The position numbers were made by a program, and so were the translations under genes. The notes below the pieces were generated by a model. It did not search any database. It was not told where the DNA came from and worked only from the letters and a program-made list of their open reading frames with translations. From the NCBI GenBank assembly GCA_016187175.1, contig JACPKG010000003.1, positions 1 through 46,542 on the forward strand: DNA of 46,542 nucleotides. Reading direction: 5' to 3'. This document shows positions 4,792 through 39,972 of this stretch, piece by piece; position 1 is the first letter of the stretch, and every line of letters starts with the position of its first letter. Origin of the DNA: Candidatus Saccharimonadota bacterium (GTDB taxonomy: Bacteria > Patescibacteriota > Saccharimonadia > Saccharimonadales > UBA10212).

Positions 4792-5358
4792 GTGGCGGTA
4801 AGTATAGACCAGCAATTCATAGAATATATCATTAAGTCCATAGTCGGTCATCCAGAGGACATCAAGATCGAGCGCCGGATTGACGAAAAAGGCGTTTTGT
4901 TAGAGCTATCAGTTAACCCCGAAGATCTTGGCCGGGTTATTGGCAAACGCGGCGCGACAGCACAGAGCATCCGTACACTTCTGCGGGCGCTGGGTACCAA
5001 GAACGACGCCCGTTACAACCTCAAAATCATAGATACAGGACCACCGCCAGAGAGCAGAGGACCCGCCTTCGCCGAGGCTTCCCCCTTCGCTGATGCTTCG
5101 GAGGACAAGTCGGTGGACGGGTCGGAGGGCAGGACAGAAGACAGAGGAAAAGTTCCAGCTGTGGCCACAGCTAGTGACGATGATGTAGTAGCAGATACCC
5201 CAAGTGACGATACAGCAGTGCCTGACGATTCGGCCAGAGCCGATGATGTAGATATGACTGAGGACGAAGAGTTGCCCAAGACACCCAAAGAAGATCATAG
5301 CGACGTAGTCAGCCGCACGCGCAAAGAATTAGCCGACCTCGACGACCTAGACGTCTAG
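4792..5358 (+). CDS. khpA: KH-domain RNA-binding protein (KhpA/YlqC family) with long acidic tail
   Basis: DLGRVIGKRGATAQSIR (GxxG KH loop); position after rpsP. Confidence 0.9.
   Translation: MAVSIDQQFIEYIIKSIVGHPEDIKIERRIDEKGVLLELSVNPEDLGRVIGKRGATAQSIRTLLRALGTKNDARYNLKIIDTGPPPESRGPAFAEASPFADASEDKSVDGSEGRTEDRGKVPAVATASDDDVVADTPSDDTAVPDDSARADDVDMTEDEELPKTPKEDHSDVVSRTRKELADLDDLDV
5049..5147 (+). repeat. Two nested 30-nt REP-like units inside a 7-bp array, in-frame in khpA
   Basis: Outer cccgccttcgccgaggct|tcggtggacggg (5062-5079 + 5110-5121) split by inner tcccccttcgctgatgcttcggaggacaag (5080-5109). Confidence 0.85.
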
Positions 5359-29301: not shown

Positions 29302-29334
29302 CCCCTGTACGCTATTTAGTATGGAGCAGCTGTT

Positions 29335-29392
29335 GCCCTCCGTTGTTGGAAGCTATGGAGGGCTATCCTCCGTAGCCTTTGGCGTAGGAGGA
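29335..29392. repeat. Inverted pair of REP-like hairpins (BIME-like)
   Basis: gccctccg...gctatggagggc followed by tcctccgtagc...ggagga; near copy at 30672-30725. Confidence 0.88.
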
Positions 29393-29434
29393 TGGCGGAG
29401 AAAAAAAGAGGTTTGAGGAGTTTATACTGTAAGC

Positions 29435-30630
29435 ATGAATAACAAACCTCTCGCAGAAAGGATGCGGCCGCAAAGGTTGGAGGAGGTTGTTGGTCAGGCC
29501 CATGTTCTGGGCGAAGGTAAGTTATTGCATGAACTTGTCCGTGCCGGTAAGCCCTTCAGCCTGATTCTCTGGGGGCCGCCGGGTAGTGGCAAACCACTCT
29601 TGCGCGCCTAATCGCAACCGAGTTAAAGGCCGATCTCGTAGAAATCTCGGCAGTCGCTGCCGGTAAAGCCGACGTTACCAAAGTTGTTGAACGGGCCAGG
29701 GTCAACGCCCAGGGTGATACTACTCGCGGACCGCAGGCCACCATACTTTTCGTTGATGAAATTCATCGTTTTAACAAAGCCCAACAAGACGCCTTTTTGC
29801 CGCATGTAGAGTCAGGACTGGTCACCCTGATCGGCGCGACAACTGAAAATCCTAGTTTTGAAGTTATCAATCCGCTACTTTCACGCAGTCGAGTAATCGT
29901 GCTGGAGCCGCTATCAAAAACAGATGTCATCACTATTGTAAAAAGAGCTGCCAAAAGAGAGAAACTGACCTCAAAACGACTGCCGAAAGAGAGCATCAGT
30001 CTGATAGCGGAATTGTCCGGTGGCGATGCCCGAATTGCTTTAAACACTCTAGAAATGGCTCAGCAGCTGACAGAAGGTAAAATCACGACTACAGTTGTGG
30101 AAACTGCTGCTCAGCAACGTATTGCGGGGTACGACAAGCTCGGCGATAACCACTACAATATCATTAGCGCCTTCATAAAGAGTCTGCGCGGCGGATCACC
30201 CACAGCGGCGCTTTATTACATGGCGCGTATGCTTCAGGCCGGAGAAGATCCGAAGTTCATTGCCCGGCGGATGGTAGTCTTTGCCAGTGAAGATATTGGC
30301 ATGGCCGCACCGGCTGCGCTGAACCTAGCCGCTTCCACTTTCTTAGCTGTCGAGCGCATCGGTCTGCCGGAATGTCAATTTAATCTATTCCACTGCGCAA
30401 CGGTGTTGGCGCGGGCGCCGAAATCTCGTGAAGTAACCAATGCCATGAAGAAGGCTTTAATTACTGCCAAGCAGTATCCCGATCTGCCAGTGCCCTTGCA
30501 TCTTCGCAACGCACCGACAGAGTTGATGAAAGAGCTTGGATACGGCAAGGACTACCAATGGCAAGCCGGCTTTAAACATGGTAAGGGATTTTTGCCCCCG
30601 GGGCTTGAAAATACCGACTTTTTTGACTAA
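29435..30630 (+). CDS. rarA: Replication-associated recombination protein A, 1-nt frameshift at 29591-29593
   Basis: PLAERMRP, LWGPPGSGK|TTLA, FVDEIHRFNKAQQD, GATTENP, ISAFIKS, ASEDIG. Confidence 0.95.
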
Positions 30631-30671
30631 AGTAGCAACTGTTAATAACCTGACAATATCAAGAGCGCAGC

Positions 30672-30725
30672 GCCCTCCGTCGTCAAGACTATGGAGGGTC
30701 CTCCGAAGCTTTATGCGAAGGAGGA
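30672..30725. repeat. Inverted REP-like pair inside riboswitch P2
   Basis: gccctccg...actatggagggt + cctccgaagc...ggagga. Confidence 0.85.
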
Positions 30726-30754
30726 AGGGATCTAGCCCTATGACCTGCCAGCAA

Positions 30755-30813
30755 CCCCACCCAAATTCGAAGAATTTGGGTTCCCCAATTTGTGGGATAC
30801 AAATTGGGTGGGG
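30755..30813. repeat. Double-hairpin element in riboswitch P3
   Basis: cccaaattc-gaa-gaatttggg and cccaatttgt-gggat-acaaattggg closed by ccccac/gtgggg. Confidence 0.75.
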
Positions 30814-30853
30814 TGCTAAACCTAGCCCGTGAGGGAAGGATACTTAAGTCTTT

Positions 30854-30881
30854 ATCCTTTCTTACGCAGAAAGGATTTTTT
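30854..30881 (+). terminator. Riboswitch expression platform hairpin
   Basis: atcctttct-tacgc-agaaaggat plus T run; it buries the SD-like aaagga; tatcctt can alternatively pair with aaggata of P1. Confidence 0.8.
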
Positions 30882-30882
30882 A

Positions 30883-39914: not shown

Positions 39915-39972
39915 ACTGGTCTGTGCTTACAAGGATTGCATACAAGGATTATCCTTGTAAGCACAGACCAGT
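39915..39972. repeat. Left REP palindrome of the RAYT
   Basis: Perfect 22-bp arms actggtctgtgcttacaaggat/atccttgtaagcacagaccagt with an extra tacaaggat inside. Confidence 0.93.

Follow-up and report, generated by a model that had tools for sequence, protein, structure and literature searches.

The stretch of DNA analysed here (46,542 nt, contig JACPKG010000003.1 of assembly GCA_016187175.1, Candidatus Saccharimonadota bacterium; hereafter the window) carries metK, the gene for methionine adenosyltransferase. Between the start codon of metK (ATG, 30883) and the stop codon of a rarA-like gene upstream of it lies a leader (30655-30881), directly 5' of metK, with the organisation of an S-adenosylmethionine (SAM)-I, or S-box, riboswitch. 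Two additional segments are present in this leader, one in helix P2 and the other at the tip of helix P3, and the segment in P2 belongs to a family of palindromic repeats dispersed over the genome. The features at the locus and the related repeat copies are collected in Table 1.

Table 1. Features of the metK leader and its surroundings, and copies of the palindromic repeat family (window positions unless a contig is given)
Feature	Position	Strand	Basis or remark
Promoter-like site (TTGAAA, 17-nt spacer, TAAAGT)	30605..30633	+	9/12 consensus matches only
P1 5' strand (A30655, U30657-C30660) and J1/2 AAGA (30661-64)	30655..30664	+	aligned to relatives' AAUAUCAAGAG
P2a 5' strand (G, bulged C, GCAG at 30667-70); partner 30745-30749	30665..30670	+	5/5 pairs form
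Doublet of palindromic repeat hairpins, 53-54 nt	30672..30725	+	absent from 27/28 aligned relatives
Kink-turn and P2b (GGG 30727-29/CCC 30736-38; loop AUCUAG)	30725..30744	+	alignment
P2a 3' strand (CUGCC)	30745..30749	+	alignment, pair count
P3 (conserved AGCAACC...GGUGCU; tip 30760-30808 elaborated)	30750..30817	+	7/7 model P3 pairs form
J3/4 with pseudoknot 3' half CUAG (30822-25); P4 CCC-GUGA-GGG (30826-35)	30818..30835	+	pair count
J4/1, P1 3' strand GAUA (30839-42) and antiterminator	30836..30859	+	fold
Terminator/Shine-Dalgarno sequestor (AUCCUUUCU / AGAAAGGAU, 9 bp, 30854-76), then U-run	30854..30881	+	terminator scan
metK, methionine adenosyltransferase, 371 aa	30883..31998	+	translation; TIGR01034, 449.5 bits (cut-off 309.4)
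Second hairpin doublet, same architecture	29334..29396	+	intergenic before rarA-like gene, 1.3 kb upstream
In-frame family copies, C-terminal tail of KH-domain (KhpA/B-like) open reading frame 4792-5358	5061..5113	-	hidden Markov model, Pfam
In-gene family copies elsewhere in the genome (G000)	C2:12221-12259, C7:12475-12507, C19:4368-4404		

The SAM-I leader and its expression platform

From the 5' to the 3' strand of P1 the element spans 190 nt, and between 30655 and 30844 the J1/2 sequence AAGA, P2, the 3' strand of the kink-turn (UAUGA), GCAACC...GGUGC, J3/4 and P4 follow one another in order. The original prediction of a complete SAM-I core in an aptamer of about 190 nt is thus borne out, as is its expectation that standard models would score such an expanded variant low. 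An Rfam scan of the whole window at gathering thresholds reported tRNA only and missed the SAM-I element, and a scan at a permissive E-value recovered the SAM model RF00162 at 30708-30850 with 29.3 bits (E 1e-4), so that the native leader does not reach the threshold of 44.4 bits. This is the sole SAM match in the whole genome, an assembly of 663,662 bases that is 93% complete; the window is its contig 17 and is present in groundwater metagenome runs. The score falls short because the P2 insert makes the model mis-assign the 5' strand: the RF00162 alignment contains a 44-nt insertion in P3 and a wrongly assigned 5' strand of P1 and P2a. A clade covariance model (R1), built from the SAM-I elements of 28 relatives with the genome of the window left out, gives one match in the window, at 50.0 bits (E 6.5e-12; runner-up 11.6 bits). 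Both covariance models prefer a false 5' strand inside hp2, the second hairpin of the P2 insert, to a 54-nt insertion, and their 5' alignments are untrustworthy.

Among 61 genomes (this one and 60 relatives), 32 have a SAM match at E<=1, 21 of them above the cut-off. In 26 of the 30 loci that were fetched metK begins 6-226 nt after the SAM-I element, and the other four have no metK match within the locus. A metagenome scan for strain-level relatives of MetK gave none above 76% identity; the best MetK in the scan of genome contigs reached 61% in a genome labelled Patescibacteria and 59% in one labelled Saccharibacteria. These matches point to a host that is probably an ultra-small bacterium of the Candidate Phyla Radiation type. 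Two alignments were made: one of the elements of 28 relatives (A1), from which two with a very long P3 were excluded, and one of the leader with 17 relatives (A2), which was used to place the inserts and the true start of the element at AAUAUCAAGAG (30655-65). The consensus that RNAalifold computed for the relatives missed P1 and P2a and was set aside; the SAM-I structure was therefore imposed by hand and checked by counting pairs. In the 28 relatives 91.4% of the cells of this structure are paired, against 83.0% in shuffles, and 18 of the 30 pairs, pseudoknot included, show compensatory changes, a number reached by none of 500 shuffles. P2a is paired throughout (100%), with compensatory changes in four of its five pairs, and the pseudoknot has them in three of four.

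Measured against this clade model, the leader forms 27 of the 30 pairs. P4 (3/3) and the pseudoknot (4/4, CUAG 30732-35 in the P2 loop AUCUAG with CUAG 30822-25) are complete, and the three misses all fall in P1, of which five of eight pairs form. Two of these misses are the outermost pairs, which are also missing in 9 and 15 of the 28 relatives, and the third is A30656·C30843. All 23 columns that are invariant in the clade are retained, as are 10 of the 11 columns conserved at >=90%, and the nucleotides of the ligand-pocket junction and of P3 (AAGAG, GCAACC, GGUGC, GAU) are conserved. Over 82 core columns the mean identity of the leader to 11 relatives is 0.765, within the range found among the relatives (0.714-0.804), with a mean residual of +0.003; a stop codon in its extracted MetK stretch led to the exclusion of one genome (G058). 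By this weak test (r = 0.23) the core gives no sign of a faster decay. The leader shares with the metK leaders of RF00162 the four-way junction of P1 to P4 and its junction nucleotides, the pseudoknot, the bulged strand of the kink-turn and the adenine at its position 1n, the competition between P1, antiterminator and terminator, and the position upstream of metK. Judged from its sequence it is a genuine SAM-I riboswitch, predicted to control metK, which departs from the typical RF00162 form by two extra helices (53-54 nt) in the non-bulged strand of the kink-turn and about 49 nt at the tip of P3.

The expression platform is likewise intact. AAGGAUA (30836-42) pairs with UAUCCUU (30853-59) in an antiterminator of 7 bp (-5.0 kcal/mol), which has the lowest free energy among the structures of the nascent chain up to 30862, and the 9-bp terminator (-9.6 kcal/mol), followed by a U-run, appears in the chain ending at 30882. 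The proposal that the switch between P1 and terminator had survived the insertions agrees with both pairings. As the Shine-Dalgarno sequence AAAGGA (30870-75), 7 nt before the ATG, lies within the 3' arm of the terminator, this hairpin is able to affect translation as well as transcription. The design of AUCCUUUC...GAAAGGAU, U-run and AUG is common to the ten relatives printed, in one of which (G037) the start codon was not located by the script. In minimum-free-energy folds of the growing chain hp1 and hp2 appear first, followed by P2a and P2b, P3 with its tip hairpins, P4, the antiterminator and finally the terminator. P1 alone is disfavoured, costing +1.3 kcal/mol to add.

These folds suggest the following mode of action. 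Binding of SAM would lock P1 (UAUC/GAUA), and locked P1 would free UAUCCUUUC to pair with GAAAGGAU; the hairpin thus formed would serve as an intrinsic terminator and, two bases in front of the start codon, as a Shine-Dalgarno sequestor. In the absence of SAM, AAGGAUA would pair with UAUCCUU as antiterminator. Transcription from the promoter-like site would start about 15-20 nt before P1.

The inserts and a dispersed palindromic family

The P2 insert lies between GCAG of P2a and AA-GGG (30725-29), on the 5' (non-bulged) strand of the P2 kink-turn, and consists of two hairpins. The first, hp1 (30672-99, GCCCUCCGU...AUGGAGGGU), has a predicted energy of -13.3 kcal/mol, and the second, hp2 (30700-24), reads CCUCC-GAA-GC-UUUAU-GC-GAA-GGAGG, with a GAA/GAA internal loop and a predicted energy of -12.4 kcal/mol. 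Comparison with the metK leaders of relatives, which had been suggested together with the original prediction, served to locate the insertions; 27 of the 28 aligned relatives are without the P2 insert.

The effect of the inserts on detection was measured with a sequence-only profile hidden Markov model (HMM), built from the 28-relative alignment and run, as a surrogate for Infernal, on variants sliced from the window. The native leader is recovered in two pieces (47.6 + 5.2 bits), and so is the variant from which only the P3 insert was removed (49.4 + 5.2 bits). Removal of the P2 insert yields a single full-length match of 66.4 bits, and removal of both inserts one of 68.0 bits; the training relatives score 51.1-83.6 bits, with a median of 74.3. 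By this profile it is the P2 insert alone that breaks detection. The original prediction stood or fell with whether the sequence freed of its inserts still scores as SAM-I, and on this surrogate it does.

Inserts at the P2 site are rare as judged with a strict search pattern, the strictness of which makes the following counts lower bounds: an insert of 10-40 nt was found in 1 of 401 genomes of the order (G011), one of 41-70 nt in 1 of 21 genomes, namely this genome only, and the normal spacing of 2-5 nt in 13 of 151 genomes. The SAM-I element of G011 (locus L031) carries its additional hairpin at the identical site, flanked by GCAG and by the A in front of GGG. It too scores below the Rfam threshold (30 bits), its metK and platform are intact, and it shares with the leader studied here the platform design and the metK lineage (MetK 76% identity). 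Unlike the doublet, however, the insert of G011 is a single 24-nt hairpin of unrelated sequence, which forms in the predicted fold and of which no other copies were found in the G011 genome.

The second hairpin of the P2 insert is a member of a repeat family. An HMM of this family, stable over two iterations, finds 13 copies at E<1e-3 in the genome and matches hp2 with E 2e-7; for the fuzzy search with a 22-mer we calculated that about 0.05 chance matches are to be expected. BLAST found no long second copy of the P2 insert in the genome. A doublet of the same architecture stands before the rarA-like gene (Table 1), and 52 of 73 aligned columns are identical between the two doublets. Among the copies the stems covary (CCUCC/GGAGG, CCGCC/GGCGG, CCACC/GGUGG) around a conserved core, GAAGC-N4/5-GCGAA. 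This core motif occurs in 15 of the 61 related genomes with a patchy distribution (6 here, 5 in G002, 10 in G023 and 4 in G005), and a control with the reversed pattern gave two matches in total. Some copies are intergenic, for example downstream of tRNAs. Besides those in the tail of the KH-domain protein, in-frame copies separate the barrel domain of a class II ribonucleotide reductase from its TSCPD domain and the catalytic domain of a tRNA synthetase of the Glu/Gln type from its anticodon-binding domain, with a further in-frame occurrence in the tail of a TraG-like ATPase.

The original prediction spoke of a doublet of repetitive extragenic palindromic (REP) elements of about 50 nt in P2. 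What lies there is a doublet of 53-54 nt of dispersed palindromes, and as a description of such a pair the term is right. The family is, as REP elements are, a dispersed multi-copy imperfect palindrome, at times paired as in bacterial interspersed mosaic elements (BIMEs), and the genome has genes of the Y1-transposase type, to which the REP-associated tyrosine transposases (RAYTs) that mobilise REPs and BIMEs invite comparison: five matches to PF01797 (Y1_Tnp), which is many for 0.66 Mb. Unlike REPs and BIMEs, many copies of the hp2 family are intragenic, inside open reading frames (ORFs) with Pfam domains flanking or upstream, rather than extragenic, and the transposase-like genes are not flanked by the family: no copy adjoins any of the five. 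The ORF 39987-40637 matches the model of REP-associated tyrosine transposases, NF047646, at 48 bits, below its cut-off of 80. Given that no Y1 transposase gene is nearby and that this match is below the cut-off, "REP doublet" holds only as a description of dispersed palindromes, and strict REP status is not established. The ORF is itself flanked by a different palindrome: a perfect inverted repeat of 22 nt is present at 39915-39972, and a repeat of 28 nt occurs at both 39936-63 and 40641-68.

In its behaviour the hp2 family resembles the Rickettsia palindromic elements (RPEs) and fits the classical extragenic REPs less well. RPEs are short selfish palindromes that occur in intergenic DNA, in frame in genes and once in the gene of a structured RNA: for R. 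bellii PMC1458961 gives 526 RPEs, 53 of them in genes and one in the tmRNA gene. The two differ in that the units of the hp2 family are about 35 nt long (about 55-60 nt as a doublet), belong to another phylum, have a riboswitch aptamer as their RNA target and are, as far as tested, unrelated in sequence.

The elaborated tip of P3 is of a different nature. Its insert of about 49 nt forms two hairpins (30760-80 and 30784-808), both present in the minimum-free-energy fold, in agreement with the double hairpin proposed to extend P3. No other copies of these hairpins were found in the genome, and the claim that the riboswitch was invaded twice by repeats is for this reason only half shown: it holds for the doublet in P2. 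Two relatives (L021 in G034, 1501-1682, and L029 in G023, 1501-1670) have low-complexity inserts of about 80 nt, rich in TAGT/AACTA, at the tip of P3. In the alignments of this clade the P3 tip is variable and is an expansion hot spot.

The kink-turn at the insertion site

In the kink-turn of SAM-I the non-bulged strand reads 5'-P2a-3n-2n-1n-P2b, according to PMC3651934; the C helix corresponds to P2b and the NC helix to P2a, and the strands were assigned from the RF00162 consensus. The bulged strand of the leader is intact, with UAU followed by G1b, A2b and C3b (30739-44), of which 1b and 2b are as in most relatives. On the non-bulged strand position 1n is an adenine in all 28 relatives and in the leader (A30726). 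Position 2n is A30725 in the leader and varies among the relatives (G in 14, T in 7, A in 5 and C in 2), and position 3n is occupied by the two-hairpin insert of 53 nt. Many relatives depart from the G·A/A·G consensus at columns 41 and 61-62 of the 28-relative alignment, 2n not being G in 14 of 28 and 1b not being G in 9 of 28.

Calorimetry of the T. tengcongensis riboswitch offers a measure of what these positions tolerate. According to PMC3651934 the changes A1nC or A1nU abolish SAM binding, G2nA (Kd 0.31 µM), G3nU and even G2nU combined with G3nU still bind SAM, and the triple variant A1nC, G2nU, G3nU is without SAM binding. PMC3672288 further shows that a pk-turn can substitute for the SAM-I kink-turn with SAM binding kept. 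Because A1n is invariant and kept, 2n is variable and the 2n and 3n variants still bind, the insertion falls in the one tolerant part of the non-bulged strand.

A selfish palindrome doublet would thus have inserted at the 3n/2n position of the non-bulged strand, to the P2a side of the G·A pairs, and the internal loop of P2 would have become a four-way junction of P2a, hp1, hp2 and P2b; the P3 tip would separately have gained its two hairpins. Being self-contained local hairpins, the inserts should fold during transcription and point away from the ligand pocket. Such an arrangement recalls the k-junctions of TPP riboswitches and of DUF-3268, in which the non-bulged strand of a kink-turn bears an extra helix (PMC10573300). 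There, however, the C-helix side of the G·A pairs carries the extra helix, opposite the loop, whereas in the metK leader two helices stand between P2a, on the NC side, and A2n, and the junction would be four-way, not three-way. The P2 insert accordingly falls outside the k-junction definition of that paper.

Retained function, recent loss and other explanations

The contrast between a core without apparent decay and a kink-turn interrupted by a repeat doublet can have several explanations. On balance we lean, with moderate confidence, towards a leader that still folds and senses SAM, maybe with weaker affinity. The complete core, the tolerant insertion site, the independent hairpin of G011, the common platform and the maintenance of repeats in functional genes all support function. 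More tentatively, and with somewhat less than even confidence, we suggest that the leader works as a SAM-I riboswitch in which a four-way junction, made from the kink-turn by the doublet, still brings the P2 loop to J3/4, and that in these ultra-small genomes the mobile hairpins persist only at structurally permissive sites in proteins (inter-domain linkers) and RNA, which they mark.

Several observations weigh against retained function. Rfam scores the leader below its gathering threshold. The extra helices are placed otherwise than in known k-junctions, and PMC10573300 offers no structural precedent for this exact topology. U30699 is able to pair with A30725 in the predicted fold, and the kink-turn would thereby lose its 2n adenine. 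P1 is weak, with four contiguous pairs followed by the mismatch A30656·C30843, where 23 of the 28 relatives have a pair; its predicted cost is what is expected of a ligand-dependent helix, but the mismatch also weakens it. The test of core conservation is of low power at its r of 0.23 and cannot distinguish continued function from an insertion that happened very recently. Finally, this regulation is dispensable in the genus. G002, which has the most similar metK (83% identity) and the same synteny of rarA and metK, possesses a leader of 115 nt (L034, G002:C7, 2620-2740, minus strand) without a SAM-I match even at E<=10, and G001, of the same genus, is without any metK match.

It is therefore possible, with a probability that we put at roughly one chance in three, that the riboswitch was recently disabled. 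The doublet would then have broken the P2 kink-turn, so that neither the pseudoknot nor the SAM pocket forms, the antiterminator is the default and metK is constitutive, and the core would be intact only through the recency of the event; the element would be heading for the loss already reached in the sister species. The loss of SAM binding in the triple variant (PMC3651934), which marks the kink-turn as essential in the model SAM-I, fits this explanation, as do the replacement of 3n by the insertion, the possible sequestration of 2n by the U30699-A30725 pair, the mismatch in P1, the low Rfam score (29.3 against 44.4 bits) and the bare leader of G002. It is less easily reconciled with the retention of all 23 invariant positions, the pseudoknot and the platform in a core that diverges no more than those of the relatives do among themselves. 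The G2nA and G3nU variants, moreover, retain SAM binding in the same source, a hairpin has independently been retained at this P2 site in G011, and the hp2 family persists at permissive sites in genes that look essential.

Alternatively, the inserted hairpins might add a function, the GAA/GAA loop of hp2 or its GGAGG-rich arms binding a protein or the ribosome as a second regulatory input. The covariation of the stems around the conserved GAAGC...GCGAA core and the presence of the motif in 15 of 61 related genomes could be read in this way, but a palindrome mobile at the DNA level predicts equal covariation. The copies, both intergenic and coding, have no common neighbour, no Rfam family matches the hairpins, and the riboswitches of 27 of the 28 aligned relatives are without such an insert. 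We consider this explanation improbable.

Least probable of all is a repeat spliced into the leader by metagenome mis-assembly: repeats can give chimeric joins, and there is extra contig depth over 30674-30741 from similar sequences elsewhere in the samples, but in each of four DNA runs one contig spans 30300-31300 with both inserts and without joints across them, the spanning contigs differ in only two letters, both within metK, no contigs lacking either insert were found in these runs, and the conserved halves of the riboswitch continue in register directly on either side of the insert. The four runs, besides which no RNA run is listed for this stretch, stem from one study, possibly the source of the window, and so do not count as independent support against an artefact.

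If SAM sensing has been retained, the SAM-I fold can accommodate two additional helices in the very kink-turn strand that orients the pseudoknot, and the locus is a natural experiment in insertion tolerance as well as a ready-made construct for the real contribution of the kink-turn. The four-way junction, if true, would be a new natural architecture in which a kink-turn is elaborated on the NC side. Repeat-invaded riboswitches drop below curated thresholds, and censuses in small repeat-bearing genomes may undercount them. In a genome of about 0.66 Mb a single palindromic family occupies intergenic DNA, protein linkers and a riboswitch, a pattern known from Rickettsia; in the literature on repeats inside riboswitch aptamers, on riboswitches of Patescibacteria and on palindromic elements of the Candidate Phyla Radiation we found no equivalent report.

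Some further observations concern the surroundings of the leader and the related genomes. The rarA/mgsA-like gene upstream of the riboswitch (29435-30630) is split by a -1 frameshift in its Walker A motif: one frame reads GPPGSGK-PLLRA-stop, and TTLARLIATELK... continues in the next. The gene is either a pseudogene or affected by a sequencing error in a run of A. In the assembly G173 the 5' half of SAM-I occurs four times (at the ends of contigs C2, C6 and C15, and on C12), three of them <=90 nt from contig ends, which could reflect a repeated locus or a fragmented assembly. Near the start of the window, at 1311-1390, a 40-nt unit is perfectly duplicated in tandem.

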